DNA of 64,000 bases from Verrucomicrobiia bacterium (GTDB taxonomy: Bacteria > Verrucomicrobiota > Verrucomicrobiia > Limisphaerales > UBA1100), in the NCBI GenBank assembly GCA_014239365.1, contig JAAZZB010000001.1, positions 6,494 through 70,493 on the forward strand, given 5' to 3'. Positions within the stretch are counted from its first letter, which is position 1. The number at the start of each line of letters is the position of its first letter. The position numbers were made by a program, and so were the translations under genes. Below, piece after piece: positions 5,756 to 55,024 of this stretch. Below the pieces are notes generated by a model. It was not told where the DNA came from, did not search any database, and worked only from the letters and a program-made list of their open reading frames with translations.

Positions 5756-5756
5756 T

Positions 5757-7535: not shown

Positions 7536-8401
7536 CAGGCGGGCTCCAGTAATTGAATTTCCTCCAGCGCGCTGAGCGACTTGCCGAGGTCTTCGGCGAT
7601 GAGGGTGGTGAGTTGCGCGCCGGTTTGTTTGCAGGCGTTGTGCCAGCTTTGTTGCAGACGGCGGAGGGTGTCGCGATAGGTTTGCTCGATGGTGGCGTCG
7701 ATATAAATGGAAAGCAGCTCGCCGGTCTCGGTGTCCTGCAACTGCACGTTGCCCGGCTCGGGCGGGGTGGCATCGGTACGGGCGAGCAATTGGATGACGT
7801 GCAAACTGGCCGCGCCTTCGGAAAGTTTGCGCAGCGTGGGCAGCGGATCGCCGGGCCACAGCAAATCGCTAATGATGACCCGCATCCCTTGACGGCGCAA
7901 TCGCGGCGGCAGCAATCCGTGCGCTTCCTCAAAGGACCGCGCGCCGCCCATGGGCAGATCGCCCCACGCGCCGGGCGGTTGGGTGTCGTTGCGGACGCGT
8001 TGGAAGCCCTCGCCGGTCATCCACAACGCCTGCGAGCAACGCGCGTTGGCGGCGGCGGTGGCGAGCAGCGCGGCGAGTTGATGCAGCGCGGCGGGCTTGT
8101 CGGTGTCCGGCAAATTCATCGAGGCGGAGGTGTCGAGGATGAGATCGAGATGCGGCTGCACTTCCTCGCGATGCAGTTTGACGATGAGCTGATTGCTGCG
8201 GGCGTACGCGTTCCAGTCGATATGGCGGAGGTCATCGCCCGGTTGGTACTCGCGGTAATCCTGAAAATCCACCGAGCTGCCCGCGCGGCGGCCGAGGCGT
8301 TCACCGCGCGTGCCGCTCATCGGCGCATCCGGCAGGCACAGCGCGTAACGCATCCCCGCCCGCTCGCCATCAATCAAGCTTTGGCGGAATGGGGTTTTCA
8401 T
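7535..8401 (-). CDS. DUF58 domain protein
   Basis: The sequence GERLGRRAGSSVDFQDYREYQPGDDLRHIDWNAYARSNQLIVKLHREE is the DUF58 signature. The start is uncertain: ATG at 8401 overlaps the upstream gene by 32 nt, and the alternative is ATG at 8353. Confidence 0.8.
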   Translation of the reverse strand: MKTPFRQSLIDGERAGMRYALCLPDAPMSGTRGERLGRRAGSSVDFQDYREYQPGDDLRHIDWNAYARSNQLIVKLHREEVQPHLDLILDTSASMNLPDTDKPAALHQLAALLATAAANARCSQALWMTGEGFQRVRNDTQPPGAWGDLPMGGARSFEEAHGLLPPRLRRQGMRVIISDLLWPGDPLPTLRKLSEGAASLHVIQLLARTDATPPEPGNVQLQDTETGELLSIYIDATIEQTYRDTLRRLQQSWHNACKQTGAQLTTLIAEDLGKSLSALEEIQLLEPA

Positions 8402-9944
8402 TTGAATCGACCGGCGGCGTGGCAGCCGGTTCTTCAGCGCGCTCGTAGGGTTTGAAATCGATGACGCGTTGGTAAATCCATTTGGCATTGAACACCAGCG
8501 CTACCGCCGTGAGCCCCACCGCAGTAGCCAGATGGATGAGCACTTCTTCCTGTTTATAAAATGCAATCGGCGAAAAAGAAGTGATCGCGATGCCGGGAAT
8601 AAATGCGTCGCCCATAAAATCCTGCGTGAACAAATAATAAATTATAAACGCCCCGAAATAGGGAATCAAAATAATCACGATCACAAACAGGCGCGGCCAC
8701 AGCGCGCTGCGGTTGGGGATCAACGTGCGATGCACCCACAACGCCATTAGCGAATAGGCAATGTGATACAAGCCAATCACAGTGAAGCCCTGCCAAGCTT
8801 CGTGCCAATCATTCGCGTGCGCGGAACTTCCGGTGAGTGTGGGCCAAACCAAAATGCTGGCCGAGGCGATGAGCAAACCGCTAAAGGCCAGCAGACAACA
8901 CAGGATAATCCCGCTGAGCGCGCCATTGAAAAACAAAAACGCCACCGCGCGGCGCAAAGGATGACGCGGGATTTCGCGTCGCACACGCACGCTCAGATGA
9001 TCCTCCAGCCCGATGGAATAAAAAATTCCAAACACCCCAAGCAGGCCGGAGATGAACAGGAAACTGCCGGCGAAGATTTCCCATTGGTCTTTCGCCAACG
9101 CCCAAATGAATGCCTCCAACCCGACGACCGCCCACATCACCACGCAATACACGCGCAGCGGATATTCGCGATTGGCCGAGCGGGGCGTGATGAATGTGAC
9201 ACACAAAAAAAACAGCAACCCGCCCGCCAGACCGATGTTGAGCAGCACGGTGAAAATCACGGGCAACGCCTCTTCCCAAAACCGTCCGCCGGTGAGTGCT
9301 CCGCCCAACGTGGCAAAGGCGCCCGCCATGAGCACACCGCCGATGGTGTATAAAATAATCGGCAATCCGACGAACAACGCGATGAGGATTTTGAAAATGA
9401 AATGAATCCCCATCGAGGCCAGCATCATCGCCGCCAGTAGTAAGAGACAGTTGATACAATATAAAAATCCAACCGTCAGTAGAATGGTGGGCAGATCAAT
9501 GCCGCGCAGCAAATAGCTGAACACCATAAAGGGCAACGCCGCTGTAAAGAAGATGCCCACCAGTGCCGCGCCACTGAGAAATTTGCCGGCGATGATGCGC
9601 GCCGGGCTCATCGTGGTGATGTAAAGCAAATCCGCGCTGGCGCTGGAGCGCTCGGCCATGCTGCGGATGCCCACGTAAATGGGCAGGAAAAAAAAGGTGA
9701 CCGCCATCATCACGCCCGCGATGGAGCCGAAGAGTTGCGCGCCGAGATAATTACCGCGCCCGGCCATTTCGTCGCCCAGTAAAAACGCCAGCGAAACGAT
9801 GAAGAAAATGGCCATCATCAACAGCACCGCGCCGGCGACCGTCCAGTTGCGTCCGGCTTGGCGGAGGTCTTTTACCAATACCGCGTTGGGCTCGATGCGC
9901 TTGAACCACGCGAAGCGCGATGAAGTGGCGGCGGTCTCGCTCAT
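8370..9944 (-). CDS. ABC-2-type permease-like polytopic membrane protein
   Basis: 524 aa with roughly 12 or more hydrophobic spans. The N-terminus (VKDLRQAGRNWTVAGAVLLMMAIFF..) resembles ABC-2/NosY-like permeases. It has an ATGA overlap with the upstream ABC ATPase gene. Confidence 0.65.
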   Translation of the reverse strand: MSETAATSSRFAWFKRIEPNAVLVKDLRQAGRNWTVAGAVLLMMAIFFIVSLAFLLGDEMAGRGNYLGAQLFGSIAGVMMAVTFFFLPIYVGIRSMAERSSASADLLYITTMSPARIIAGKFLSGAALVGIFFTAALPFMVFSYLLRGIDLPTILLTVGFLYCINCLLLLAAMMLASMGIHFIFKILIALFVGLPIILYTIGGVLMAGAFATLGGALTGGRFWEEALPVIFTVLLNIGLAGGLLFFLCVTFITPRSANREYPLRVYCVVMWAVVGLEAFIWALAKDQWEIFAGSFLFISGLLGVFGIFYSIGLEDHLSVRVRREIPRHPLRRAVAFLFFNGALSGIILCCLLAFSGLLIASASILVWPTLTGSSAHANDWHEAWQGFTVIGLYHIAYSLMALWVHRTLIPNRSALWPRLFVIVIILIPYFGAFIIYYLFTQDFMGDAFIPGIAITSFSPIAFYKQEEVLIHLATAVGLTAVALVFNAKWIYQRVIDFKPYERAEEPAATPPVDSNENPIPPKLD

Positions 9945-10870
9945 TGCACGCCTCCGGTGGTGACGTTCATAAAAATGTCCTCGAGGTTGGCTTTGGTTTG
10001 GCGAAACTCCACCACGCGATGGCCGCTGGCGATGAGGGTGTTGAGCACGCCGAAGGCTTCGTCCTCGCCGCCTTCCACTTCGAAATGTAATTCGGTGCCA
10101 GCCACGCGCGGGTTTTCCACGTGGGCGGTTTGCAGCAGCTCGCGCAATAAATCCTGCGGCTCACCCAGCACGCGCAGCGCGTACGTGCGGCGCGGCGCGC
10201 GCTTGGCCATCACGTCATCGATGCGTCCACTTTCCAACAGATTGCCCTGTTCGATGATGATGACGCCATCGCAAATTTCGGTGAGCTCGGTGAGAATGTG
10301 CGAGCTGATGAGAATGGCTTTGCCTTGCTTGGCGAGCAGCGAGAGGAGTTCGCGCAGTTCCACCCGCGCGCGGGGATCCAATCCGGCGGCGGGTTCATCG
10401 AGGATGAGCACTTGCGGATCGGCCACCAACGCGCGCCCGAGGCTGACGCGTTGCTTCATGCCTTTGGAAAGGGAGCGCAACGTTTTTTCCCGGATGCTCG
10501 CCACGTTGGTGAACTCCTCCACACCGGCCACGGCCTCGGTGCGTTGGGTGCCGCGCAGTCCGTAGGCGCGCGCAAAAAAATCGAGGTACTCGTGCACGGT
10601 GGTATCCCAATATGGCTTCAGTTCATCGGGCACAAAGCCGATGAGATGCCGGGCTTTTTCGGGGTATTCAATCACCGAAAGATCGTCCACAAACACATCG
10701 CCCGCGTTGGGCTCATCGAGCGTGGCCATGATGCGCATGGTGGTGGTTTTGCCCGCGCCATTGGGGCCCACGAAGCCGAAGATTTGGCCGGACTCAAACT
10801 CGAATGAAATGGAGTTCACCGCGAGCGTTTTGCCGAACTCACGCCGAAGATTTTGCACGCGGATTTTCAC
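9941..10870 (-). CDS. ABC transporter ATP-binding protein
   Basis: Walker A GPNGAGKTT, signature LSKGMKQRVSL, Walker B LILDEPAAGLD and H-loop SSHIL. Confidence 0.93.
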   Translation of the reverse strand: MKIRVQNLRREFGKTLAVNSISFEFESGQIFGFVGPNGAGKTTTMRIMATLDEPNAGDVFVDDLSVIEYPEKARHLIGFVPDELKPYWDTTVHEYLDFFARAYGLRGTQRTEAVAGVEEFTNVASIREKTLRSLSKGMKQRVSLGRALVADPQVLILDEPAAGLDPRARVELRELLSLLAKQGKAILISSHILTELTEICDGVIIIEQGNLLESGRIDDVMAKRAPRRTYALRVLGEPQDLLRELLQTAHVENPRVAGTELHFEVEGGEDEAFGVLNTLIASGHRVVEFRQTKANLEDIFMNVTTGGVQ

Positions 10871-12816
10871 GGGCCGGCCTCCGATTGTTTGAGCACCCCG
10901 TACACCACCGCGTGCGTTTTGAGCTGCCCGCGGCCGATGGGGTTTTCCATAAAAGGCGAGCCCGCCATTCGCGCGAGGTACGTGCCCGGCACGAGGTTTT
11001 TTGGGTAATTATTTTCCGGCGTATCTATTTTTGTGGACAATAAAAATTCGGTGTTGAGGTGGTTGATGACCGTTTGATTTTCAGAGCTGCGTTGGAGTTC
11101 CACGCGCTGGCCGGCGTGCAGGATGGAGGCTTCAAAAATATTTCCCCGTGCATCCGCCAGCCAGAGATGGAGGATGTCCGCGCCGAGGCTGTTGACCACC
11201 GTGGGCGTGCCGCCTTTCCAAGTGACGCTGAGGCGTTCCTTGCGCGGCTCGCTTTTTCGCAGCGCGAAATGCGCCGGCACACGCGAGGTCACCCATTTGC
11301 CGGTGAAGCGTTGCCCCTTCGTCCAGTCCACCCCGCGATTGCCGCCGGGATCGTTCCCCCGGTAATTGAGCAGCGGCGTGACTTCCGTGTGCGCAGAGAA
11401 ATTCAGTTCGCCCGGAGCCACCGGCGCGTAAATGCCCAGCGCGCCCACGGTGGTGGCTTGTTGCGTTTCTTGATTTAGGATTGTGATCACATCGCGCCGC
11501 ACCGTGGGGGTGAAGCCTTCGTTGAGCAGCACCGTGCCGAAAACGATCGCGCTGGTGAGGATTGAGATCGCCGGAAGCGTCCACAAAAACCACGTGCGTT
11601 TTTTGAACTTATGTAGCAACACCAAATTCACCGGCCCGGCCAGCACCACGAACCCGATTAAAATCACAATCATCAACCGCACCGGCACGCTGGAGTCTTC
11701 CACGATCGGAAAATAACTATCATAACTACCCGAGTTTTGGTGGTCATAATAAAACTGGTAATCTCCGTACAATCCGGTCGTTGCCGCGACAATGGAAAGC
11801 AAAACCGGCTGCCGGGGATCGGTGTGATTGGACAGGGTTTTTATTCCAGCCAGCATTTTAGTGTTGGCCAGCTCGTCGTTTACGGGCGAATCCATCAGAT
11901 GAATGTACCCCCAACCCAAGGCGAATGCCGCGCCCGGAACGGGGCCGGTGCCTTGTCCCGGTTGGGTTTGGTTTTCGGATCCGGTAGCGTTCTCCTCATG
12001 CGGGAACGCTTCATTATTAAAATGATCTTCATTTAAGGACACCACATTTTTGCGGAAAATATTTTCAGATTTTTTTCGGGATGTCATTTGGCTGGCGCTT
12101 TGCAATCGGGCATCCGCCGGCAAAGTGATTTTGCCCAGCACAAACAACCGCCCGCCGGCGCGCACATATTGCAGGAGCGCTTGCTGAACTTCAGACGGCG
12201 CTGCGTCCCATTCTTTCGCCCGCACCACCACCACATCAAACCCACTAAACGCCAGCCAATGCCTCGGCCATTGAGAGGTGGGACCCTCGGCAATGTTCAC
12301 GCTAAATTCCGCGGGGGCGCTGGAGCTTGATCCGGCAGCACTGGCCGGCATCGCCAGGGTACCTCCACCCCACGACCGGCTGGCCAACACAACGGTTATC
12401 TTGTTGTTGCCGAGATTGACAAGTTCATCCACGTGCACCCCAAAGGCATCATCCAGTCGGCGCGCGGTGCCATCCACAATGATGTTGGCGTCGCTGTTGA
12501 AACTATTGATGTCGAGAGGAGGCTGATAGAGGGAAATCACTTTGCGGCTTTTGGGGCCGAGCGTCACGGTGCGGCGTATAATTTCGATGTTGGATTCGCT
12601 TCGGAAATTTTCCCGCGGCAATTCGATGGTCACCGTTCGGCCCTGGGTGGTCGAAAGATTTTCCAGTTCAAACTGATGCGCCGCGTAACCGTGGGAGCGT
12701 TCGGCATCGGCCAAAGTGCGTGTGCGGACGTGGACGTTTTTGAACGTCAATTCCCCCGCCAACATGCTGAAGGCCAGCAGCGGCACGACACACACAATTT
12801 GGAAAAAACGAATCAT
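10867..12816 (-). CDS. Membrane protein of unknown function (649 aa) within the MoxR/ABC operon
   Basis: Signal/anchor MIRFFQIVCVVPLLAFSMLAG, with central TM spans (VRLMIVILIGFVVLAGPVNLVLL, WFLWTLPAISILTSAIVFGTVLL). It has 4-nt ATGA overlaps with both neighbours. I recognise no family. Confidence 0.6.
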   Translation of the reverse strand: MIRFFQIVCVVPLLAFSMLAGELTFKNVHVRTRTLADAERSHGYAAHQFELENLSTTQGRTVTIELPRENFRSESNIEIIRRTVTLGPKSRKVISLYQPPLDINSFNSDANIIVDGTARRLDDAFGVHVDELVNLGNNKITVVLASRSWGGGTLAMPASAAGSSSSAPAEFSVNIAEGPTSQWPRHWLAFSGFDVVVVRAKEWDAAPSEVQQALLQYVRAGGRLFVLGKITLPADARLQSASQMTSRKKSENIFRKNVVSLNEDHFNNEAFPHEENATGSENQTQPGQGTGPVPGAAFALGWGYIHLMDSPVNDELANTKMLAGIKTLSNHTDPRQPVLLSIVAATTGLYGDYQFYYDHQNSGSYDSYFPIVEDSSVPVRLMIVILIGFVVLAGPVNLVLLHKFKKRTWFLWTLPAISILTSAIVFGTVLLNEGFTPTVRRDVITILNQETQQATTVGALGIYAPVAPGELNFSAHTEVTPLLNYRGNDPGGNRGVDWTKGQRFTGKWVTSRVPAHFALRKSEPRKERLSVTWKGGTPTVVNSLGADILHLWLADARGNIFEASILHAGQRVELQRSSENQTVINHLNTEFLLSTKIDTPENNYPKNLVPGTYLARMAGSPFMENPIGRGQLKTHAVVYGVLKQSEAGP

Positions 12817-13856
12817 CCGGTGGGTTGCAGCGAAACATCTTCGGGCAAGTGCAGGCCGGTGTCGTCGAGGGCTTCGAGCAATTGATCGAGCACGCCGTGG
12901 GCATCCACGCGATCGAAGCGCGCTTGGTAATTCAAAATCAACCGGTGATTCAAAACCGGCCGTGCAATTGCGCGCACATCTTCAAAGCCCACCGTCGGCC
13001 GGCCATCCACCAGCGCGTGCGCCCGCGCCGCCTCGGCCATCGCGATGGCCGCGCGCGGGGAAGCGCCGTATTGCACGTAGCGCGTTACCGGCTCGGGCGC
13101 TTCGGCGTTATCCGGATGCGTGGCGGCGACCAATCGCGCGATGTAACTCGCCACCGGTTTGGGCAGGAAAATATGCTCCATCACACTGAAAAGATATTTG
13201 AGGTCATCGGCATCGAGCTGCCATTCCGGCGCGGGCACATCGCCGCGGCGGCGACCGGTGATGATGTTTTGCAACACCGGCGCATCCACCGCATCAAACA
13301 TCACGCGAAACAGAAAGCGGTCCAGCTGCGCTTCGGGCAATGGATACGTGCCTTCCATCTCGATGGGATTTTGGCTGGCGAGCACGAAGAACGGATCGGG
13401 CAGTGCGCGTGTTTGGCCGCGTAACGTGACCGAGTGTTCCTGCATCGTCTCGAGCATCGCGCTTTGGGTTTTGGGTGAAGCGCGATTGATTTCATCCGCC
13501 AACAAAATATTGGTGAACACCGGCCCCGGCTCAAAAATCATTTCGCGTTTGCCGGCATCCGTCTCCTGCAAAATATGCGTGCCCACCACATCGCCCGGCA
13601 TCAAGTCCGGCGTAAACTGCACGCGGCTGAATTGCAGCTTCATCACGTTGCCGATGGTTTGCACCAGCGCGGTTTTGCCCAAACCGGGGAGGCCTTCCAA
13701 CAAAATATGCCCGCGACTGAGCAGGCCGATGAGGACAAGCCGATGAAGCTCCGCGCGCCCAAGCAGACTGCGGTCGAGTTGTTCCAGCACTTGCCGGGTG
13801 AGTTCGGTGGCCGGAGTCAGTTCTTCCGGTTTGAGTAGGCGGGTGGTTTCACTCAT
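12813..13856 (-). CDS. MoxR-family AAA+ ATPase
   Basis: Walker A LLEGLPGLGKT, Walker B ILLADEINRASPKTQSAMLEAMQE-type (ILLADEINRASPKTQSAMLETMQEHSVT) and FFVLASQNPIEMEGTYPLPEAQLDRF. Confidence 0.93.
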   Translation of the reverse strand: MSETTRLLKPEELTPATELTRQVLEQLDRSLLGRAELHRLVLIGLLSRGHILLEGLPGLGKTALVQTIGNVMKLQFSRVQFTPDLMPGDVVGTHILQETDAGKREMIFEPGPVFTNILLADEINRASPKTQSAMLETMQEHSVTLRGQTRALPDPFFVLASQNPIEMEGTYPLPEAQLDRFLFRVMFDAVDAPVLQNIITGRRRGDVPAPEWQLDADDLKYLFSVMEHIFLPKPVASYIARLVAATHPDNAEAPEPVTRYVQYGASPRAAIAMAEAARAHALVDGRPTVGFEDVRAIARPVLNHRLILNYQARFDRVDAHGVLDQLLEALDDTGLHLPEDVSLQPTG

Positions 13857-15776: not shown

Positions 15777-18700
15777 ATGGCTAGCTTACGTAAACGACTA
15801 AAAAGTGATAACTGGGTTTGCTGCTACGCCACGGCGGATGGGCGGCGGACGCAGCGCAGCACAGGCACTACTGATAAAGATGAGGCGATGGCGATCTGCC
15901 GTCGTTGGGAGAATGATGAGTATGCGCTGCGCGAAAGCGAGGAGCCGGTGGAGGGCATGGCCGTGTCCAACAAGCGCGCGTTGGTGGCCGGTTTGGTTTC
16001 GATGGTGATTGTGATTTTGGGTTTAGTGGGCTACTGGCAATATGATCTTTGGAAGAACGGGCCGGAGTTGTTTGTGGATGTGCCGGAGAGTGAACGGCCG
16101 GAAACATTTTTTGAATCCAGTTTTGCCAAGCGGCATCGTTGGGTGAAGCTTTCGCCGGATGCGTTGGAGCGGTTGAATACGCTGGGCGGCAAGATTCGGC
16201 TGAATCTTTTTGATGATCTGCAGCTGAGCACGGAGGTGGTGGTGCGGCGCTACATCAATGGCGGCAAAGAAACTTCGGTGGGTCTTTTGGATAATGATCC
16301 GGATACCTTAATGATGATGTGCCACAAAACCACTCAACCCGGGAAGTTGATGGGAGTGTTGGTGGATACGTTAGGCACGCAATATTTAATTTCGCACGAG
16401 ATTGATGGTAAGCACGTCATTGTGGAAGTGGATCAATCGAAGATCCCCGGTTGCGGTGGTGTGATTGAATTGGAGCCGGCAAAGACCGCTGCGGCGAAGC
16501 CCGCCTCACGCGTCGCGCCCGAGGCGATGGCAATGGAGCGGATTTTGCGTGGCACCGAAGAGGCACGGGCACGCATCGGCACGGGCGATCATTCGCATCA
16601 AACGGGGGCGACTTGCAAAGATTGCCGTTCGTTTGCTTCGCTCAAAGAGAAATTCAATCAAGTAAAAGTTCGCATAAATCCTCCAAAGAGCGACACGCCC
16701 ACGGGGCCTTCGGCGTTCAGTGGACAGGATGAGCCAGTGAACACCGCTTCCCATAATTTACTTAATTCCGTGAACTTCAGTCGGCCCATTTTTGCGGCGA
16801 TTGATAATACCCGCAGCTTTGGCCTTTGGGGTCGGGGCGGGTCCGCCATCCAAACCACCGGCCCCGCTTCACCCGGAGTTTTGGAGCATCTGCGCGGAGG
16901 CGATGTGGAAATCATTGATATCCTGTTTGTTTATACCGATGACCTCCGGGCGGCGCAGACAGGGGCGAATCCAGCGGAGCAGCTTGAGAATCTTAAGCTT
17001 TCCATCACGCGCACGGTGGAGCTGACCAACACGATTTTTTCTAAATGCCATATCCCGCTTGAGGTGCGCACAGCGGATGTGACGCTGGCGCGATGGCGGG
17101 CGATGTCGGGCGGCGATGCCACGTTGGCGGCCGCAGGCGGGCCCGCTGGTGCGGCGTGGGAAGAGGTGCAGGCACCTGTTCGACCCGTTTTCGATTCTGC
17201 AGCCACCCCGCCCGCCTTTACCAAAGATTGGACCAATGGCGCGAAAGTGGGGGTCTACAGACCCAAGTATGAAATGTACAACCCCAGCAAGCTGACGCCG
17301 GCGGGTGAATTGGGCGATGCCTTGTCGTGGATTGGGCAAAACAGTAACAGCTTACTTTATGGGGACCAATACTGGGGGCAAGGCACATTTCAGGCTGCCG
17401 GTGGGGCGGAGCAATGGCCTCACAATAATTTGCCCAACAATATCGCGTGGGTGTTGGTGCCGATATTGGATGATTCTGGAAACGCCGGAGATAATGCTGC
17501 CAGTTTTACGTACAGTAATACGAATACACCCGAGCTGAACACCGGCCCCGTGGAGCACGCCGAATCCAGCCACGGGCTTACCGATCCCGGAGGCGCACCG
17601 GGGAATCCCGCCACCACACTTCCCACCGGTGTTCCTGCGATGTCGCATATTCCAGTGCAGCAATACCACGATTTGACAGGCCCTACGAAGGGGCCGGTAA
17701 TGGTGGATATTGGCGCAGACACCATTGAGTGGCTTGGCGGCGCGGATCACGGTTTGGCCACCGGTTCGGTGGTTTATTTCGAATCTTGGGGCACGGCGCC
17801 GGATACGAACGCGAGTGCGATTCCGATTTGGAACGTGTATCAACAGCCCGCAAAACTTGCCGTAGTGCAGGTGCAGGCTGACGGAGGCGGAGCAGCGGGT
17901 GGGCGTCCTCAGCCTGAGTCACAGCCGGGCGGCGGCGGTAGCAAGAGCGCTCCCAAACCAGGAGGCGCCGGGGTTCCCAAGGCGGCCGGTCCGGTGGCGG
18001 CAAGAAATCGCGGAAGAATTACCAGCGCCCAACATTATCCGGGCTTGTCGGTTGGTGAACGCACCGTTCATCCAATTTTAGAAGGGGGCCGGGCGAGTTA
18101 TTGGTATCTCGATTATTCGGGCGATGTGGCGGATCCGGAAAAGAGCGCGCGCGCTTTTTTGGGTGCGATGGCGCAACAACTGCAAATGAAGGCCGACACT
18201 TCAGATTTGCAATTGCTCGAGGTGAAGCACGGGCTGGGCACCGGCCACGCGCGGTTCCAGCAAGTGCTCCACGGCATCCCGATTTATGGCGGATTTGTTT
18301 CAGTGCATCAGCGACCCAGCGGAGCCATCCACGCTTTGCATACCAAGTATCACCATTCGTTATCGGTGGATGCTCAGGCGAGTCCGGCCATTTCGATGAC
18401 CTCTGCCAAGGCGGCGGCTTATCGGAAAGGCGGGGTGACCCGTCCGCGTATGCCCGGCTCCGGCAAGCTCGTGTGGTGGCCGGACGATCGGGGCGGGGCC
18501 AAGCTTGCTTGGGAAGTGACGATTTGCGCACTCAAACCGCTGGGAGATTTTCATACCGTGGTGGATGCCCAATCGGGCCGGGTGTTATTGCAGGAAAACC
18601 GCATCTGCTTCGCCACGGGTGCGGGCAATGTTTTTATCCCAAACCCCTACCAGAGAAAAGGCGGGAATGCCGACGCCTCGCTACGGGATAATCCAGCGGG

Positions 18701-21700
18701 AATTGATGATAATAACAGCACCGAGTTGGACGGGTATATGACCAACGTAAGTTTGCCCCGGCTAAGTACTGGCACGGGAACGCTTATAGGGACTTATGCC
18801 GATATGGTGCGCCTCAACAATGGCAGCGTCCCTGCGGTTACACTGGCCAATGAAGCCACGCGCGTTTACAACTATAGCCGCAACGACGTTCGCTTTGAGC
18901 AAACCAATATTTACTATACCATCGACCGGGTGGGTGCTTATATTTCTTCACTGGGATTTTCCAGCGGCAATACCCCGCCCAACGGCATTCGCGATGCCAA
19001 TGCCACACGAAGTTGCGCGCAATGGGATGGCAGTCAAAATGCCTTTTATTCCCCCGCAAATAATTCGTTACATTTCGGCACAGGCACCATCGACTCGGCG
19101 GAGGACTCCGATGTGGTGGCTCACGAATATGGCCACGCGATTACATTTGACCAAAATATCAACTGGGGCACGGGCGGAGAATTTGGCGCAATGGGCGAAG
19201 GCTTCGGCGATTATTTGGCCGTGACCACCTTCTTCGACGACGGGGATGCACTTTACCAGAAACATCATGCTGCCGTTGTTGGCGAATGGTTTGGGATGGG
19301 GTTTGACCCGATCTTTGATAATTCCCCTGATGTTTCAAAAGGAAAAATCAAGACCATCTTAGGTGGCGGCGCCATCGGCAATTTCATTGACGACAATTCC
19401 TCGGCGCGCTCAACCGATGTTGAAATACGAAGTGTGGCGGATTTCGTCATCGAACCCACCAACTGGCAAAAGCTCTATCTCACCGACAACAACGGCAGCC
19501 GGGTGCGGCGGATGGATTTTAATGCCACCTTCGGCACGACGGTTGATGTCAATTCCTCCTTCACCATACTAGCCGGCGGCGGGGTGCAGAATCCGGATGC
19601 CAATGCGTCCGCGGCCAATGTGGCTCTACAGCAAAGCCTTGGCACGCTGGGCGCGATCGATCTGAACTCCACTGAAGGCGTATTCTTCGTGGATAAAAAC
19701 GCAACCGGTTCCTGCCGTATTCGGCGCATCGACACCAACGGCTCACTCACCACTGTGGCCGGCGGCGGTGTAACGAGCCCCAATTTCATTGCTACTGAGC
19801 CCGGGGCGGCCTCGCCGATGGCCACTACATTGAATTTCACCAGCATTGAAGATATTGCGTTTGACGATCTAAATCGACTTTACCTGAGCAGCACCAATGC
19901 CCAAAGGGTTTGGCGAATGGAAACAAACGGCTCCATCATCCTGTTCGGCGGCGGCGGTGTTTCAGAATTGGATGGGCAACCCGCCACCAGCACGCGCTTA
20001 GGCGGCACCCACACATTGGCTACCGATTCGGAAACCGGCTTTTTCGGGACCACCCGCTTTGTTTATCTGGATGCCAACTCTACCACCAACAGCATGCGCC
20101 TTCGCCGAATTTTGGTGGATGACAATGCCACCCTGCGCACCATCAGCACCGTGGCCGGAGTGGTGGGGGGGATTAATCCCGATACCGCCACCACCCCCGT
20201 TAATGCCGCCAACGCATTACTCACCAACGTGGATGGCATCGTGTTCGACGCCTCAGGCCGATTGTATTTTGGCGATCGAGGGGCCCAACGCGTGCGGCGT
20301 ATCGATGCGACTGTGAATATGTTTGGTGTCAAAACCTACACCACCCTCAGCACCGTTTCCGGTGGCGGGGCAAACGATACCGGCGATGGCGCTGCCACCG
20401 CCGATGCGGTCATTGGCCCGGTGAAATCCATTGCCGTCGATGCCACGCGCCAGGTTTATTCGTTAGGCAGCACGCCGTTGGGCGGGCTGCGCATTCGCAA
20501 GTGCTTCGGCGGGCCACCGATTGATCCCCCAATGGTGCGGCGCATCGATGGCAATAAACTATATACCGATCTCGTAACCCCCGCCAACAGTCCCGCCAAC
20601 GTCCACGGCAATGGTGAGATTTGGAGCCGCGCCTTATGGGATATCCGCGCAGCCATTGTCACCTCGGACGGCAATGCCTCCATCGCCGATCGCATTATTT
20701 TGCAACACCATTTTGGGCTGCCCGCGGGGGCCACAATGCGCACCGCTGCGATGGCTATCAACAATGCCGACATCAGCCTTTATTCCGGTGCCCATACCAA
20801 TTCCATCCAAACCGCCTTCAACAATCGGGGCATCACTGTGCATGGCGACTACACTGGAGGCACAGGCGTGCGGCTTGCCTTGAACACAGATTATTATGTG
20901 GGTCGGGTGGATGCCACTAAGATCAACATTTACTCCAGTATGGGTGAGGCGGTGAAGGGCCTTAATAAAATTGATTTCAACGCAACCGGATTCAACGTTA
21001 TGATGGTGCGCGCTTCAGCGGGAGACATCACCTACGGTCAGGCATTTCGGCCACCGAACCCCGCTAATGTGATGCCCGTGGTGGGCACCAACGGTATGGA
21101 TGTGGGTGCCCTGCGAATGGACATCAGCGGGGGTGGAGGCCAGCGCTACCCAAACCTGCACGGAGCTTTTGGAGACTTTGGTATGGGCGTTGCAACAGCC
21201 CGAGCCGATCTCGTGTGTATCCTCACCGAAAACGTGGGCGGCGCCGCCGCCGGTTTAGCCCAGAAACTCACCATGCGCGGCCCGAACCCGCCGCAAGATT
21301 TGATGTCCGGCACCACTCGACCCGATGACGTGGACTTCAACTCCTCACAAGTACTCAGCAACCGCGACAGCATTCGCAATCTTTCATTGCAGGGGCAATA
21401 CCTCACCGGCGGCTACACCTTCCAACACGAGCTGGGCCACGTACTCGGCTGCGCCCACGGCCTCGGCGATGTGGGTGCCGGCTCGCCACCGGGCACACCC
21501 GGCCTGCACCCACACGACGGTGGCATCACGTTCAGCCCCTACGCCTACACGAATTCCAATGGCGTGGCCGATGAGTTTCTTGCCGTGGGCAATCATTTCA
21601 CCACCTGGGGAAGCGATGGCTTTGGCACAAAATACTGTACCATCATGGCCTACACCAATACGCGAGGCAGCACACGCGTTCCGCTTTTCAGTAGCCCGGT

Positions 21701-22709
21701 CGCATTTTGGAAAGGCGAGCCCACCGGTTTATTACGCGGGATGTACCTGCCGCCGCCCTTGTCTTCCTACGACAAGCCCTTGTATTTGGATCACGCGCGC
21801 ACCATTTCGGCCGTGGGCCATCACGCCGCGTTTTTCCGCGATTCCAACGGCTCCGGCCGCGCCTCCTCACGTACCTCCACCCGGCCCTCCCCGCCCAAAG
21901 GATTGCCCGGCGAACGGCCCAATACCTACGCCCGTGGCGGCGCTCAAGCCGGCGGAAACACTCAAGCCGGCGGCACCCAATTTGCAGCCAATCCTAATAA
22001 CCCGAACCAAATAAATATTGGCACCGCCCAGAAACCAGGCAAAGGCCTCGGCGGTGGCAGTAGCGGCGGAGGCACCACCGGCGGAGGTGGCACCACCAAC
22101 ACCAATCAAAACAACGGCGGCAACCCCGGCTTCCCCACGGGCGGCGGCGGCCCGGGCTTGGGCACCGGCGGCGGTGGGGGAGGTCTCCCCCCCGGCGGCA
22201 CCAACACCGTGCCCAATCTACCCATCAATCCGGCCGTGCCTAATGACCATCGATATTCGGCAATGAAATGGGGCGGGCGTTGGGCTAATAACACCTTTGC
22301 CACCGTCATCAACGGCCACAACAACGGCGCCACCCACGAAAACGCCGAACGCGGGCACCCCGCCTTCCACGGCAAATCCGTGTGGTGGTACATTGAATGG
22401 CCCGGCCCGGCTCCCCTCAAACTAAAAAAACTGGTGGCCACCACCAAAGGCAGCACCTTTGACACCACCCTCGGCGTCCTCTACGTGCCCAAGGGCCAGC
22501 CCGCAGCTCAGGTGCCGCTCAACAATCAGTACTTCAGTTGGAACAACAACGCCCCCGGCGGCGGTGGCCCCTTTAGCACCGTGGTGTTGGCCCCCAATCA
22601 GGCAGGAGTTGCACTGACGCTCAACCCCGGCGATCGCGTCTACTTTATGGTCGACGGCATAGGCGGCACCACCGGCAAAATCCGCCTCGACGTGAAGCTT
22701 AAAAAATAG
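15777..22709 (+). CDS. Giant secreted/membrane-anchored multi-domain zinc metalloprotease (2310 codons)
   Basis: - TM/anchor ALVAGLVSMVIVILGLVGYW at aa 68-87.
- FTP-like propeptide FLGAMAQQLQMK..HARFQQVLHGIPIYGGFVSVH at about aa 795.
- PepSY-like segment (..KLAWEVTI..VVDAQSGRVLLQEN).
- Gluzincin site VVAHEYGHAI (nt 19122-19136) plus MGEGFGDY (Glu at nt 19197).
- Six NHL-like blades with the pattern ..LY..D....RVRRID...G.
- HGNGEIWSRALWDI at nt 20604.
- Metzincin motif HELGHVLGCAH (nt 21426-21458) and Met-turn CTIMAY (nt 21636-21653).
- G/P/T/N-rich linker, then a roughly 155-aa C-terminal domain.
- The real start may be ATG at 15957 (MAVSNKR..). Confidence 0.85.
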   Translation: MASLRKRLKSDNWVCCYATADGRRTQRSTGTTDKDEAMAICRRWENDEYALRESEEPVEGMAVSNKRALVAGLVSMVIVILGLVGYWQYDLWKNGPELFVDVPESERPETFFESSFAKRHRWVKLSPDALERLNTLGGKIRLNLFDDLQLSTEVVVRRYINGGKETSVGLLDNDPDTLMMMCHKTTQPGKLMGVLVDTLGTQYLISHEIDGKHVIVEVDQSKIPGCGGVIELEPAKTAAAKPASRVAPEAMAMERILRGTEEARARIGTGDHSHQTGATCKDCRSFASLKEKFNQVKVRINPPKSDTPTGPSAFSGQDEPVNTASHNLLNSVNFSRPIFAAIDNTRSFGLWGRGGSAIQTTGPASPGVLEHLRGGDVEIIDILFVYTDDLRAAQTGANPAEQLENLKLSITRTVELTNTIFSKCHIPLEVRTADVTLARWRAMSGGDATLAAAGGPAGAAWEEVQAPVRPVFDSAATPPAFTKDWTNGAKVGVYRPKYEMYNPSKLTPAGELGDALSWIGQNSNSLLYGDQYWGQGTFQAAGGAEQWPHNNLPNNIAWVLVPILDDSGNAGDNAASFTYSNTNTPELNTGPVEHAESSHGLTDPGGAPGNPATTLPTGVPAMSHIPVQQYHDLTGPTKGPVMVDIGADTIEWLGGADHGLATGSVVYFESWGTAPDTNASAIPIWNVYQQPAKLAVVQVQADGGGAAGGRPQPESQPGGGGSKSAPKPGGAGVPKAAGPVAARNRGRITSAQHYPGLSVGERTVHPILEGGRASYWYLDYSGDVADPEKSARAFLGAMAQQLQMKADTSDLQLLEVKHGLGTGHARFQQVLHGIPIYGGFVSVHQRPSGAIHALHTKYHHSLSVDAQASPAISMTSAKAAAYRKGGVTRPRMPGSGKLVWWPDDRGGAKLAWEVTICALKPLGDFHTVVDAQSGRVLLQENRICFATGAGNVFIPNPYQRKGGNADASLRDNPAGIDDNNSTELDGYMTNVSLPRLSTGTGTLIGTYADMVRLNNGSVPAVTLANEATRVYNYSRNDVRFEQTNIYYTIDRVGAYISSLGFSSGNTPPNGIRDANATRSCAQWDGSQNAFYSPANNSLHFGTGTIDSAEDSDVVAHEYGHAITFDQNINWGTGGEFGAMGEGFGDYLAVTTFFDDGDALYQKHHAAVVGEWFGMGFDPIFDNSPDVSKGKIKTILGGGAIGNFIDDNSSARSTDVEIRSVADFVIEPTNWQKLYLTDNNGSRVRRMDFNATFGTTVDVNSSFTILAGGGVQNPDANASAANVALQQSLGTLGAIDLNSTEGVFFVDKNATGSCRIRRIDTNGSLTTVAGGGVTSPNFIATEPGAASPMATTLNFTSIEDIAFDDLNRLYLSSTNAQRVWRMETNGSIILFGGGGVSELDGQPATSTRLGGTHTLATDSETGFFGTTRFVYLDANSTTNSMRLRRILVDDNATLRTISTVAGVVGGINPDTATTPVNAANALLTNVDGIVFDASGRLYFGDRGAQRVRRIDATVNMFGVKTYTTLSTVSGGGANDTGDGAATADAVIGPVKSIAVDATRQVYSLGSTPLGGLRIRKCFGGPPIDPPMVRRIDGNKLYTDLVTPANSPANVHGNGEIWSRALWDIRAAIVTSDGNASIADRIILQHHFGLPAGATMRTAAMAINNADISLYSGAHTNSIQTAFNNRGITVHGDYTGGTGVRLALNTDYYVGRVDATKINIYSSMGEAVKGLNKIDFNATGFNVMMVRASAGDITYGQAFRPPNPANVMPVVGTNGMDVGALRMDISGGGGQRYPNLHGAFGDFGMGVATARADLVCILTENVGGAAAGLAQKLTMRGPNPPQDLMSGTTRPDDVDFNSSQVLSNRDSIRNLSLQGQYLTGGYTFQHELGHVLGCAHGLGDVGAGSPPGTPGLHPHDGGITFSPYAYTNSNGVADEFLAVGNHFTTWGSDGFGTKYCTIMAYTNTRGSTRVPLFSSPVAFWKGEPTGLLRGMYLPPPLSSYDKPLYLDHARTISAVGHHAAFFRDSNGSGRASSRTSTRPSPPKGLPGERPNTYARGGAQAGGNTQAGGTQFAANPNNPNQINIGTAQKPGKGLGGGSSGGGTTGGGGTTNTNQNNGGNPGFPTGGGGPGLGTGGGGGGLPPGGTNTVPNLPINPAVPNDHRYSAMKWGGRWANNTFATVINGHNNGATHENAERGHPAFHGKSVWWYIEWPGPAPLKLKKLVATTKGSTFDTTLGVLYVPKGQPAAQVPLNNQYFSWNNNAPGGGGPFSTVVLAPNQAGVALTLNPGDRVYFMVDGIGGTTGKIRLDVKLKK

Positions 22710-24365: not shown

Positions 24366-25331
24366 TTAAGCGTCCGAGCGCCGATCCGTGGGGCGTTCTG
24401 GCCGTGTGGGCCGGTCGCCGCCGGGGCGTTGGTCTGGGCGGCTGGGGCGGTCGGGCCGATTGAATCCACCACCGGGCCGATCACCACCGGGGCGTTGGCC
24501 GGGATTGAATCCGCCTTCACGTCCGCCGGGGCGTCCGCCTTGGCCGCCGCGCTCAAATGACGGGCGCATTTCTTCGCGGGTGAGTTTGCCGTCTTTATTT
24601 TTGTCCAGCTTGGACAATGCGACGGTGGCGTTCTTGAGTTCCGCAGCGGAAATCTCGCCGTCTTTATTAGCGTCCAACGCGATCATCACGGGATTCATCG
24701 GGCGTCCGCCACCGAAGTTGGGCCGATCACCGCCTTGACCGGGGCGTCCACCTTCGCCGGGACGTCCTCCCTGTCCGGGCCGACCGCCTTGGCCACCGGC
24801 ACCGGGTCGTTCACCTTGGCCGGGGCGACCGCCGCCACCTTGGCTGCGGAAAAACTCCATGGCTTGTTCGCGCGTTGGGCGCTCATTTTCATCGAGTTTG
24901 CCATCGCCGTTTTTGTCGAATTTCTTCACTAACAATTCGCGCATATTTCCCCGAGCATCGCCACCGCGCCCGCCTTGGCCACCTTGGCCGGGACGTCCGC
25001 CACCGAACCCACCGCGTCCGCCTTCACCGGGGCGTCCGCCCGCGCCGGGCCTTCCGCCGCCGGGGGCACGGTCTCCGCCGCCCGCGCCGCCTAATTGGGC
25101 ACGGAAAAATTCCTGCATTTGTTCGCGAGACGGGCGCTCTTTTTCGTCGAGTTTGCCGTCGCCGTTTTTGTCAAAATGTTTGAGCATTTGTTCGCGAATG
25201 GAGCCACGGTCGCCGCCGCTGGGACGTCGATCGCCTCCTTCGCCGGGGCCGCGTTGTTGTGCCTGTGCGGCGGTGGGAATGAGGATGAGGCCGCCAAGGA
25301 TGGCGGGAATCAGGGTTTTTGTTTTCATCAT
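24366..25331 (-). CDS. Secreted EF-hand calcium-binding repeat protein
   Basis: Signal peptide [24 protein letters not shown]. Four canonical EF loops: [36 protein letters not shown] and [12 protein letters not shown]. They are separated by G/R/P-rich spacers. Confidence 0.85.
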
Positions 25332-25475
25332 GATTATGGTTTTGTGAATGGTTTTGGGAGTCTTTGGACTTTTCCGGATTAGTTCGACTAACAAGACGTC
25401 CGGCGACCCTTGTATCGTTACAAAAAATGTAACTTGGCGTGCACGAAAATCGTCCGGATAACAGGAAGTATCAAA

Positions 25476-26483
25476 ATGAAACTCATCCCCTTCTTTTTCA
25501 CCGGCTTGTTTGCGGTAAATCTCTGCGCCATTCCGATTGCCTCAGCCGCTGCTGAGGGCAAGATCGCTTGGTTTGGCACGTGGCAGGGCGGCTTGGCCGA
25601 GGCGCAGCGCACGGGCAAACCCATCCTGCTCACCTCCGGCGCGCCCCAATGCCACAACGTGCCGGGCGTTTGGTGACCGGGCAAAACGAGCATGGACAGG
25701 AGTTTCCTGTCTCACAAATCGGTGGTCGCCGCGTCGCGCAAGTTTGTGTGCATCCGCCTCGCCACGTATGAAGACGCCGCTGAGAACGCGGTGCTCAAGC
25801 GCATCTTCGCGCCGGGCGGCACATTGCAAAACACGGTGTTCGGCATTCTCACGCCCGATGGAAAAACGTCCATCGTGCGCGCCGGGCGCAGTCCCGCGTG
25901 GGCCTTCGGTGGCGCGGCGGGCAAAGGGATCCATCAACAAACCGAAGCCGTGATGGCCAAGATGGGCGACACGATGGAGGCCATCGCGCTGGCATATCCG
26001 GGCAATGGCACGGAAAGTAAAGGGCCGCTGCCATTGCCGTACCTCGCAGATTTGCGCGTGGCGCTGAATGTGACCGCGTGTGATCGCCAACCGCTCGTGG
26101 CTGTTTATGGCAACGCCGCCCAACGCAAAGCGATGGAGGCGGAGTTGACGAAGCTCGCATGGAGCGATCAGTTTATGGGCCAAGTGCAATACGTCGCCGC
26201 GAGCAAGGCGGCGGATTTTACATCGGTGAAAGGATTGAAAGCCAAGTCCGGCATCATTGTGATTCAGCCGGAGCCATTCGGTTTGAGCGGCAATGTCATT
26301 CGCGAAATCGCTGCGGGCACAAAAGCCGGTGAATTAAAAAATCAACTCGCCCAAGCGCTCGGCAAACACAAGCCCAGCGAATTGACCTACGACCAACACC
26401 GCCGCGCCGGCGCCCAAGCCGGCAAGCGTTGGGAAAGCAAAACGCCCAACACCGACGGCGCGGGCCGCCGCCGGCAGCGTTGA
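25476..26483 (+). CDS. Secreted thioredoxin-fold (Thioredoxin_7/DUF255-like) protein with in-frame TGA at 25674-25676; candidate selenoprotein, alternatively a pseudogene
   Basis: AGGAAG lies 8 nt before the ATG at 25476, followed by a signal peptide. The fold motif reads KPILLTSGAPQCHNVPGVW-TGA-PGKTSMDRSF..KFVCIRL. The two track ORFs (25410-25676 and 25692-26483) are in the same frame. A hairpin lies at 25694-25712, downstream of the TGA. Confidence 0.55.
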
Positions 26484-26553: not shown

Positions 26554-26567
26554 AATAATTGGTTTCA

Positions 26568-27880
26568 ATGAACACAAAAGCATTTCTCATCGCGGCATTG
26601 GCGGTTTTCTTCGGCGGTTCATTGTCCGCCGACCAACCACGCACGCCGGTTTCTGCGCTGCCCAATTTGGTGTTGTTGGTTTCCGATGATATGGGCTGGA
26701 ATGAGGTGGGTTATCACGGCAGCAAAATTTCCACGCCACACATCGATCGCCTCGCGAAGGATGGTTTGCAGCTGGATCGGTTTTATGTGCATCCCATTTG
26801 CAGCCCCACGCGCACGGCGTTGATGACCGGTCGGTCGCCCGCGCGTTTTGGCATCACGGCGGCGTTGACGCGCGGCGCGGGTGTGCCTTTGAGTGAACAT
26901 TTTATGCCGCAAACTTTTCAGAAAGCGGGCTACCAAACTTTCATTGTCGGCAAATGGCACCTCGGCAATCGGGGCGATGAGTACGGTCCGCGCCAACGCG
27001 GCTTTGATCATTTTTATGGCTGCCGCGGCGCGAAGGTGGATTACTACACGCACCTCGGCCCGCGCGGTTTGGATTGGCAACGCAACGGCGAACCCCTTCG
27101 TGAGGAGGGCTATTCCACTGACCTCTTCGCCGCCGAGGCCATTCGATTGATAAAAAATCGCAATCGCCGCCAGCCGATGTTTTTGTATTTGCCATTCAAC
27201 GCGCCGCATCCTGTTGCGCAGGCACCGGCGGCGTTAATTGAGCAATATGCCAAGCTTGGGTTCACCGGACAAAACACCGCCCACGCCGCCGCTATCGACG
27301 CGATGGATCAAGCGATCGGTCGCGTACTTGCGACGATTGAAACTGAAGGGATGGCGCGCAATACGTTGGTGATGTTTTTTTGCGACAACGGTTCCGGCGG
27401 TGGCGGACGCGGCTTGCGCGGCAGTGGGCCAAAAGGCGGCGCGGGCCAACTCGCGTTACGCGGCGGCAAGGGGAGTGTGTTCGAGGGCGGCATTCGGGTG
27501 CCGGCGGTGCTGCGTTGGCCGGGCGTGATTCCGGCGGGGGCCAAGAGTGGTCAGTTGGTTTCCGATGTCGACTTGTTTCCCACCCTCGCCGCGGCGATGG
27601 GGATTGCGCCCAAAAACTCAAAGCCATTCGATGGCGTGAATTTGTGGGACGCGCTACGCAACAACAAAACTGCCCAGCGCAAGCCGGTGGTGGTGGCCGG
27701 TTCGCGAGGGGAATTCGCGCTATTGCAGAACCAATGGAAACTCATTTTGAGCCCTCAACAAACGAGCCTTTATAATGTGACCAAAGACCCCACCGAAAGC
27801 CGCGATGTGATTTTGGATCACCCCATCATTGCCGCCGAATTGGCCGATGCACTCGCGCCTTACAAAACACCGGAAAAAGA

Positions 27881-27884
<4 letters not shown>
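26568..27884 (+). CDS. Arylsulfatase (formylglycine-dependent sulfatase family)
   Basis: Signal peptide, then [18 protein letters not shown] and the CxPxR site [12 protein letters not shown]. Further motifs are KWHLG and FFCDNG. Confidence 0.9.
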
Positions 27885-29044
<1,160 letters not shown>

Positions 29045-54823: not shown

Positions 54824-55024
54824 ATGCCACGAAAGGTAAGACAGTTGATTGCGGATTTAGAGCGGGCGGGGTTTGTAAATCGCGGGGGCAAGGGCAGTCA
54901 CCGAAATTATTCGCATCCGACCGGTGGCCGAATTACTGTCAGTGGGCGGCCCGGTGAAGATGCAAAATATTATCAAGAGCGCGATCTCCGAAATGCCTTG
55001 GCAAAAGTGAAAGGGAAAAAATGA
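54824..55024 (+). CDS. hicA: HicA-family mRNA interferase toxin
   Basis: 66 aa: RKVRQLIADLERAGFVNRGGKGSHRNYSHP.GGRITVSG..GEDAKYYQERDLRNAL, the YcfA/HicA pattern with the GSH motif. Confidence 0.85.
   Translation: MPRKVRQLIADLERAGFVNRGGKGSHRNYSHPTGGRITVSGRPGEDAKYYQERDLRNALAKVKGKK

Follow-up and report, generated by a model that had tools for sequence, protein, structure and literature searches.

More than 110 families of prokaryotic selenoproteins are already known, and most of them are thioredoxin-like. In the E. coli fdhF-type SECIS element, as in the bSECISearch consensus, a hairpin lies within the coding sequence immediately 3' of the UGA and carries a small apical loop that starts G-U. 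Published criteria for bacterial elements of this kind (bSECIS) comprise a loop of 3-9 nt with a G in loop positions 1-2, a stem of 4-16 bp, a spacing of 16-37 nt and a minimum free energy of -7.5 kcal/mol or lower (PMC13188914). Two catalogued families bear comparison with the gene described here, namely the VPGUxxT family thioredoxin-like (seleno)protein type 2 (NF041383), which appears as 'hypothetical protein OS_HP5' in a study of Olavius symbionts (PMC13188914 Table 1), and the Trx7/PDZ (seleno)protein NF041199, a selenoprotein with a Thioredoxin_7-type domain, a CxxU motif in which selenocysteine (Sec) comes second, and a PDZ domain. At the level of the fold, the relevant proteins are those of the AGR2, DsbD-gamma and DsbH type, which are secreted or periplasmic. 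[quoted passage not shown]

The gene analysed here lies in a 64-kb window (the whole stretch of DNA under study), and very probably encodes a single exported selenoprotein of 335 residues with Sec at position 67. Its features are as follows.

25476..26483, + strand: full coding sequence of the proposed selenoprotein, 335 codons with Sec67 among them, followed by the stop TGA (26481-26483), all in one frame.
25476..25547, + strand: predicted Sec-pathway signal peptide, MKLIPFFFTGLFAVNLCAIPIASA, read from the sequence, with probable cleavage after A-S-A.
25557..25895, + strand: predicted N-terminal thioredoxin-fold domain, AGR2/DsbD-gamma/DsbH-like, about residues 28-140, boundaries approximate.
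25650..25652, + strand: codon of Cys59 (TGC), eight residues before Sec67; candidate resolving cysteine.
25674..25676, + strand: putative UGA codon for Sec (residue 67) within W-U-P-G-K; based on TGA in 82/82 copies and on Cys homologues.
25694..25712, + strand: putative bacterial SECIS hairpin, 8-bp stem, loop GUU at 25702-25704; based on fold, covariation and codon choice.
25749..25751, + strand: codon of Cys92, in F-V-C-I-R on predicted strand beta2, invariant in all alignments.
26028..26375, + strand: predicted C-terminal thioredoxin-like (PDI b-type) domain with no redox motif, boundaries approximate, from the model of the homologue P0080.

The product matches no catalogued selenoprotein family at the curated cutoffs, NF041383 and NF041199 included. 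With NF041383 it shares the character of a bacterial thioredoxin-like selenoprotein, a similar length (the model has 287 positions), a weak alignment over the N-terminal domain, in which residues 28-136 pair with model positions 3-103, and a V-P-G immediately ahead of the Sec region. The profile score, however, is 17.4 bits where the cutoff is 275, the C-terminal two-thirds stay unmatched, and the motif reads V-P-G-V-W-U-P-G-K-T rather than V-P-G-U-x-x-T. The score against NF041199 is lower still (12 bits, cutoff 300), the residue at -3 from Sec is Gly, and no PDZ match is found. No description of the family was found in the literature searched on WUPGK, UPGK and WCPGK motifs and on Thioredoxin_7 selenoproteins, and the 119 selenoprotein families of a 2026 list include none with this motif; the family may figure under another name in a supplementary list. 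It seems reasonably probable that the gene represents an undescribed selenoprotein family, defined by an exported two-domain PDI-like architecture, a single Sec in W-U-P-G-K, a Cys partner at -8 and a SECIS that hardly varies.

The TGA at 25674-25676 (codon 67) is the sole break in the frame that runs from ATG 25476 to TGA 26481-26483. A preliminary description of the sequence had noted two open reading frames in the same frame, parted only by this TGA and five sense codons, after which the next ATG stands at 25692; the sequence bears this out, and the readthrough product written there, ...APQCHNVPGVW-[TGA]-PGKTSMDRSF..., is reproduced exactly, as are the Cys eight residues upstream (Cys59) and the Lys at the second-Cys position of CxxC. 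The N-terminus also resembles a signal peptide, as had been proposed, and a comparable hydrophobic leader precedes nearly all of the 82 reconstructed orthologues.

These orthologues come from 80 species-representative genomes which, with the window, provide 82 gene copies at 37-90% identity. The tblastn matches in all 80 genomes cross the TGA in frame. An alignment of orthologues had been suggested as a check, and it speaks clearly for a selenoprotein: the codon after an invariant Trp is TGA in every one of the 82 copies, with no TAA, TAG or sense codon among them, in taxa that include Verrucomicrobiota, Planctomycetota, Omnitrophota, Kiritimatiellia and Vulcanimicrobiota. In 20 more distant full-length homologues, which align end to end with the product of 25476-26483, the same column holds Cys in the motif W-C-P-G-K; the three of them whose DNA was read (loci L081-L085) encode it as TGC. 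One orthologue only carries a residue other than Cys, the close relative L086, where the site is TTA (Leu), one base from TGA, and the hairpin is retained. The stop sits at the nucleophilic-Cys position, as the preliminary description held, whereas the degenerate W-C-x-x-C motif it assumed gives way to the family's own W-[C/U]-P-G-K, in which the Lys is invariant and no resolving Cys follows. Upstream, a Cys is found at -8 in 95% of 81 orthologues and at -9 in one clade (L031/L033-L035). The Sec form may be the dominant one across marine and freshwater Verrucomicrobiota, Planctomycetota and neighbours.

Downstream of the TGA, the hairpin GGACAGGA-GUU-UCCUGUCU forms 8 bp around a 3-nt loop, with a free energy of -10.2 kcal/mol. 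Its position at 25694-25712 and the start of its loop 28 nt from the U of the UGA stand as first described, the spacer between TGA and stem being 17 nt and not the 18 nt given there; 25 nt lie between the UGA and the loop, which agrees with the earlier statement that the distance falls in the bacterial SECIS range. The suggested fold of 25674-25735 recovers the hairpin, yet this 62-nt segment on its own is unexceptional (z = -1.38); the significance of the hairpin comes from the comparison of orthologues and not from the fold of a single sequence. There, it stands at a fixed distance, with 94.7% of cells paired, and six of the eight pairs show compensatory, double-sided changes; none of 500 shuffles reached these values of pairing and covariation, and slid controls were 29-59% paired. 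The collapse of synonymous-site entropy is confined to codons +7 to +11. Within the hairpin, Arg is AGG in 61 of 66 copies, where the remaining conserved Arg positions use CGN; for Ser, 78 of 78 codons are AGT (TCN elsewhere); and Phe is TTC in 73 of 74, compared with 46/35 at +23. The structure is kept despite an altered peptide in L072 (MDRSLWS) and L056 (MDEGALS). Conversely, it is absent from the TGC homologues, in which the corresponding 19-nt segment has a folding energy of -1.8 to -3.8 kcal/mol compared with -10.2 in the window, even in L083 with its near-identical peptide MDRDFLS.

The window hairpin lies within all four of the PMC13188914 bSECIS criteria (GUU loop, 8 bp, 25 nt, -10.2 kcal/mol), while the 19-nt core alone misses the threshold of -7.5 kcal/mol in 24 of 71 distinct orthologous sequences (-5.6 to -7.2). 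Compared with the fdhF-type element, it shares the location, the G-U at the start of a small loop and a distance to the UGA inside 16-37 nt, but differs in having a triloop, a perfect 8-bp stem without a bulged U, and a sequence that is almost invariant across phyla. A covariance model of the SECIS alignment has a single match in the window, 25694-25712 itself (63.4 bits), and detects no second copy there. An Rfam scan of 25600-25800 gave chance matches only, with no family that fits the hairpin.

A hairpin of this kind could act otherwise than through selenium. Downstream hairpins can generally stimulate readthrough, and this lends some credit to decoding of the UGA without selenocysteine, either by hairpin-stimulated near-cognate insertion of Trp or Cys or by insertion of Cys via the Sec machinery. 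We regard this as very unlikely. The hairpin fits the SelB-type bSECIS in its G-U loop, loop size, stem length and spacing; the recoded codon falls where a thioredoxin fold has its redox-active Cys and is matched by Cys in homologues, the classic Sec/Cys pair; and selB adjoins the gene in two orthologous loci. In these, L015 and L017, the gene is immediately preceded on its own strand by selB (TIGR00475, 345.8 and 334.3 bits, cutoff 242). Both loci are verrucomicrobial and have the downstream sulfatase-DUF3500 synteny in common with the window; the ORF upstream of selB is not recognisably selA in either. No selA, selB, selD or tRNA-Sec was found in the 64-kb window, nor any tRNA-Sec within 3 kb of 60 orthologous loci. 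Because the gene is linked to selB in some genomes, its product could help to maintain the Sec-decoding trait in these phyla. As a selenoprotein gene, then, it would be decoded with selenocysteine at UGA 25674 during translation, the hairpin 17 nt downstream in the coding sequence serving as the SECIS that recruits SelB-GTP-Sec-tRNA(Sec) to the ribosome.

The structure of the product was read from an AF2 model of the Cys homologue P0080 (pLDDT 87.3) and not of the window protein. In this model, the N-terminal domain adopts a thioredoxin fold whose active residue stands at the start of helix 1: Cys90, the counterpart of Sec67, follows strand 73-78 and directly precedes helix 91-101, at its N-cap, and the counterpart of Cys92 lies within strand 114-119. 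The placement at the N-cap is shared with Thioredoxin_7-type proteins. The relation to Thioredoxin_7/DUF255 that was first proposed holds at the level of the fold but not as membership, the matches to Thioredoxin_7 (PF13899, residues 32-97, 24.6 bits, E = 2.8e-5) and to Thioredox_DsbH/DUF255 (PF03190, 18.1 bits) both falling under the gathering threshold of 27; for the Cys homologues, only a 'faint' precomputed Thioredoxin_7 match is on record. Foldseek aligns the model with AGR2, AGR3, ERp18, 3f9u, DsbD-gamma and DsbH, and the N-terminal fold agrees with the AGR2/AGR3/ERp18, DsbD-gamma and DsbH/DUF255 proteins at a target-normalised TM-score (TMt) of 0.58-0.66 and a probability of ~1.0. Like the window protein, AGR2 has a single active-site residue, one Cys in CxxS. 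The window protein differs from these proteins in having a putative Sec for Cys, U-P-G-K with an invariant Lys and the additional conserved Cys at -8, and also in a second thioredoxin-like domain and C-terminal helices that AGR2 and DsbD-gamma lack.

The second domain (P0080 residues 195-305) is modelled as a beta-alpha-beta core with pLDDT above 90; it has no Pfam or PDB sequence match, and a search of the PDB with the family profile returned nothing meaningful (best E = 0.16). Foldseek aligns both P0080 domains, over 260-330 columns, to the a-b pairs of PDI, ERp44 and the QSOX1 N-terminal fragment, which suggests a catalytic domain followed by a redox-inactive thioredoxin-like domain. The whole chains superpose poorly, however (rmsd 15-20 angstroms, query-normalised TM-score (TMq) 0.20-0.26, identity 9-14%), which points to a different domain orientation or a merely generic resemblance, and the window protein is bacterial and contains Sec, unlike these three.

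Taken with the signal peptide, the model suggests that the pre-protein would be exported to yield a two-domain PDI-like (a-b) protein, with Sec67 at the helix 1 N-cap, where CxxC oxidoreductases have their nucleophilic Cys. Cys59 could serve as the catalytic partner of Sec67, with which it might pair as a selenenylsulfide; a mixed Se-S intermediate is also conceivable, as in single-Cys proteins of the AGR2 type. The most likely function would be selenol-based redox chemistry in the periplasm or outside the cell, which might reduce or isomerise a disulfide, for example, or some other oxidised substrate.

The fold also bears on whether the two reading frames could be separate genes, one coding for a small peptide that is exported (25476-25676), the other for an independent protein of 263 residues starting at ATG 25692. 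Gene callers annotate the second frame in 93 of the best 120 database clusters, and 94% of orthologues keep the Met at +6, a conservation also explained by the G of the Met73 ATG (25694) being the first base of the stem. Against this highly improbable arrangement, the second frame would begin in the middle of the fold, as the preliminary description had recognised, the split falling between strand 1 and helix 1 in the P0080 model; the halves are fused in single proteins in the Cys homologues; and the second frame has no signal peptide. In five orthologues (L042, L047, L048, L051 and L074) it could not start at +6, because neither Met nor ATG is present there.

A recent pseudogene, in which a Cys codon (TGC/TGT) had mutated to TGA and the gene was decaying, had been put forward at the outset beside the selenoprotein. 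The TGA is indeed one base off TGC or TGT, the window holds no Sec machinery and public annotation handles the locus as a truncated gene, but the idea is effectively refuted by a TGA conserved across several phyla down to 37% identity, by a dedicated hairpin conserved in TGA forms only, and by purifying selection before as well as after the TGA, with the protein conserved and synonymous sites free. Relatives show no further stop or frameshift. Upstream of the TGA, P-18, A-24 and G-3 are 100% conserved while the synonymous-codon entropy is 1.7-1.9 bits, so the part N-terminal to the TGA must be translated in frame. A sequencing or assembly error at 25674-25676, where one base change would restore Cys, and a genome-wide reassignment of TGA can be dismissed just as firmly, since the TGA recurs in 80 independent assemblies and TGA is an ordinary stop elsewhere, as first described, ending 14 of 39 large ORFs of the window, this gene and the next one included.

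The public records examined almost all split or truncate the gene: of the best 120 database clusters, the 93 mentioned above take the Met downstream of the Sec codon as their start, and U is annotated in none of the 120. Hundreds of annotations in Verrucomicrobiota and Planctomycetota would be mended by a family model that carries a selenoprotein flag. The bacterial selenoproteome would gain a thioredoxin-fold protein that is exported, has a single Sec and bears the unusual motif U-P-G-K, an incremental addition and no new principle given the number of prokaryotic families already known. Such a protein would suggest that abundant aquatic polysaccharide degraders use selenium in their periplasm or outside the cell. 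The near-invariant SECIS also offers, across phyla, a clean natural data set on SelB recognition, with compensatory variants and with Cys forms that have lost the hairpin.

Around the gene, a scan for promoters and terminators performed no better than shuffles. A scan of the window for ORF pairs split by TGA gave 109 candidates, mostly off-frame, and no convincing selenoprotein candidate other than that at 25674. Within 3 kb of the orthologues, a sulfatase occurs at 23 loci and DUF3500 at 12. These neighbours were considered as a clue to function and rejected: the arrangement in Verrucomicrobia is synteny among relatives, and in the Planctomycetes concerned, whose genomes are taken to be sulfatase-rich, the sulfatases near the orthologues vary in position and strand.

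We regard 25476-26483 (+) as very probably a genuine selenoprotein gene, as the preliminary description had proposed, and this reading of its in-frame TGA is supported by conservation of the TGA, by Cys homologues and by a covarying hairpin; the mechanism is ordinary. A single frame, described correctly at that stage, runs from ATG 25476 to TGA 26481-26483, its sole interruption being the TGA at 25674-25676 (codon 67, Sec67), and the next in-frame start, ATG 25692, lies five codons past it. The readthrough product is MKLIPFFFTGLFAVNLCAIPIASA followed by AAEGKIAWFGTWQGGLAEAQRTGKPILLTSGAPQCHNVPGVW-U-PGKTSMDRSFLSHKSVVAASRKFVCIRLATYED... Three features around the TGA and downstream of the gene are relevant here.

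25694-25712, predicted by folding: hairpin GGACAGGA-GUU-UCCUGUCU, 8 bp, 3-nt loop, -10.2 kcal/mol
26559-27884, same strand as the selenoprotein gene, downstream: sulfatase
27881-29044, same strand, downstream: DUF3500 protein

The hairpin lies where it had been placed, with a spacer between TGA and stem of 17 nt rather than the 18 nt first reported. The 62-nt fold at the TGA is by itself unremarkable (z = -1.38), so the single window sequence is not decisive.

Comparison across relatives is more informative. In an alignment of 71 distinct 54-nt stretches, each beginning at the TGA, bases pair in 94.7% of cells over the eight proposed pairs, six of which show double-sided compensatory changes; the observed pairing values were reached by none of 500 shuffles, and sliding the partners as a control lowered pairing to 29-59%. 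Structure is kept in stem variants, both AGA/UUU at L071, with two synonymous changes, and GAG...UUG at L032 and L055, and the stem is preserved despite an altered peptide at L072 (MDRSLWS) and L056 (MDEGALS). The apical loop is GUU in 61 of the 71 sequences and G-U is present in all. The hairpin is thus a conserved structure. The bacterial SECIS model specifies a loop of 3-9 nt with a G within its first two positions, a stem of 4-16 bp, a UGA-to-loop distance of 16-37 nt and an MFE <= -7.5 kcal/mol (PMC13188914). The window element falls within all four limits (loop GUU, 8 bp, 25 nt, -10.2 kcal/mol), in agreement with the range first suggested for it; when the 19-nt core was folded alone, 47 of 71 sequences satisfied the whole model and the remainder missed the energy threshold only. 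No RNA family matching the hairpin was found in Rfam.

With C substituted for U in the query, a search of proteins returned 296 relatives. Among the best 120 clusters, 93 start exactly at the Met following the TGA position, matching the truncation seen in the window, and the family is systematically misannotated; 20 are full length with Cys at the TGA column, one has Leu, six are fragments and none is an annotated full-length selenoprotein. Scanning one genome per species (GTDB) gave 181 loci with a relative; the 80 that matched best, at 37% to 90% protein identity, belong to Verrucomicrobiota, Planctomycetota (Pirellulaceae, Gemmataceae, Isosphaeraceae, Mariniblastus), Omnitrophota, Kiritimatiellia, Vulcanimicrobiota and others. 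Together with the window these comprise 82 gene copies, one locus having two in tandem. In 82/82 the invariant Trp is followed by TGA, with no case of TAA, TAG or a sense codon, and protein sequence is conserved in frame on both sides; nearly all start with a signal-peptide-like leader. The tandem paralogues (L002:669 and L002:1791, on one Verrucomicrobiota contig) each carry TGA and hairpin. A Planctomycete clade (L031, L033, L034 and L035, around position 3181 or 296) has a variant motif, W-U-K-G-K, and its upstream Cys has moved to -9 (LACLHQVPGIWUKGK).

By codon statistics over the 82 copies, amino acids upstream of the TGA are conserved and synonymous sites free to vary: P-18, A-24 and G-3 are 100% conserved with their codon entropy at 1.7-1.9 bits, and for C-8 conservation is 95%. 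This means that the N-terminal part is translated, with purifying selection acting on it. Loss of synonymous freedom is confined to codons +7 to +11, the hairpin, where Asp is GAC in 73/82, Arg AGG in 61/66 (CGN, entropy 2.0-2.3 bits, at other conserved Arg positions), Ser AGT in 78/78 (TCN elsewhere), Phe TTC in 73/74 (46/35 at +23) and Leu CTG in 74/81.

DNA was read for four full-length homologues. P0080, P0073 and P0107 have TGC at the Sec site, and their equivalent 19 nt folds at merely -1.8 to -3.8 kcal/mol; the hairpin is absent in the Cys homologue L083 (GAC CGG GAC UUC CUC UCG) despite its near-identical peptide MDRDFLS, so the structure is tied to TGA, not to the peptide. The fourth, the Gemmataceae-like P0069 (L086:4001-5260), has TTA (Leu), one base off TGA, and an intact SECIS-like hairpin (GGACAGGAGUUACCUGUCC), to be explained either by loss of Sec in the very recent past or by an error in the assembly.

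Within the 64-kb window no selA, selB, selD or tRNA-Sec was found, the only tRNAs there being tRNA-Glu and tRNA-Asp. Two Verrucomicrobiales genomes, with orthologues 66-69% identical and the same downstream sulfatase-DUF3500 synteny, encode selB (TIGR00475, cutoff 242 bits) on the same strand directly upstream of the orthologue.

L015:827-2716: selB, 345.8 bits
L017:887-2776: selB, 334.3 bits

The ORF preceding selB in both is not recognisable as selA. At the Planctomycete locus L032 a selB C-terminal fragment lies at the locus edge, and several Planctomycetes have been reported with full selA/B/C/D sets (PMC4807772).

UGA readthrough inserting an amino acid other than Sec is unlikely, as the hairpin is SelB-type, selB adjoins orthologues and a Sec/Cys pair is present. 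A reading as two genes, the second starting from the Met after the TGA, fails: the split would cut the fold, the Cys forms are single fused proteins and five orthologues lack the ATG at +6. A pseudogene, which the preliminary description had entertained as a very recent one, and a sequencing error are excluded by the TGA conservation. Global recoding is excluded too, since TGA ends 14 of 39 large ORFs in the window, the ordinary stop it had been taken for.

The selenoprotein's fold was approached through a model of the Cys homologue P0080 rather than the window protein (68-sequence alignment; pLDDT 87.3, pTM 0.85). In this model Cys90, equivalent to Sec67, follows strand 73-78 and immediately precedes helix 91-101, the nucleophile position of the predicted thioredoxin fold; the -8 Cys sits in a short beta-hairpin just ahead of it, and the invariant Cys of F-V-C in the strand that comes next. 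Foldseek matched the N-terminal domain to AGR2, AGR3, ERp18, DsbD-gamma and DsbH in the PDB (target-normalised TM-score 0.55-0.66) and, in the same range, to a Bacteroides exported cytochrome-c-biogenesis-related domain. Both domains align loosely with the a-b pairs of PDI, ERp44 and QSOX, which indicates that the C-terminal domain is a second, redox-inactive thioredoxin-like domain. The active-site motif is W-[U/C]-P-G-K, its invariant Lys standing where CxxC proteins have their second Cys, and the invariance of R94, Y98, E99, E103, N119 and T120 hints at a defined substrate site. The protein is probably an exported selenol-based oxidoreductase, which would act via a mixed Se-S intermediate that Cys59 may resolve.

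Pfam Thioredoxin_7 and DUF255 match below threshold only. The protein belongs to neither of the two nearest NCBIfam models, the VPGUxxT type 2 selenoprotein family (17.4 vs 275 bits) and the Trx7/PDZ selenoprotein family (12 vs 300 bits). Of the 119 prokaryotic selenoprotein families inventoried in 2026, none shares the W-U-P-G-K motif or the two-domain architecture, none such appears in the GOS and earlier selenoprotein lists, with supplementary lists covered in part, and BSepDB holds previously reported families only. A literature text search for the active-site motif found no description. The family is of a well-known kind and has probably not been described so far.

The order of sulfatase and DUF3500 gene downstream is kept in about a dozen Verrucomicrobial loci, and several Planctomycete loci also have sulfatases within 3 kb, in varying orientation; any functional link to the selenoprotein would be putative. 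Long antisense ORFs overlapping the gene, at 25418-25693 (-) and 25542-26189 (-), recur in relatives and are artefacts, because their recurrence is due only to sense-strand conservation. Other features of the window are as follows.

24366-25394 (-): divergent neighbour with a signal peptide, Gly/Pro/Arg-rich repeats and several EF-hand calcium-binding motifs
15777-22709 (+): very large protein (2310 residues) bearing motifs of fungalysin M36 peptidase and of FTP propeptide
2846-13856 (-): cluster of the aerotolerance-operon type (MoxR AAA ATPase, VWA and BatA-like), plus an ABC ATPase
55021-55368 (+): HicB-like ORF, abutting the next
55365-56867 (-): 500-residue ORF, the N-terminal half only of carbamoyl-phosphate synthase large chain

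With its preATP-grasp domain, ATP-grasp domain and start of the oligomerisation domain, the last of these is a split or truncated carB.
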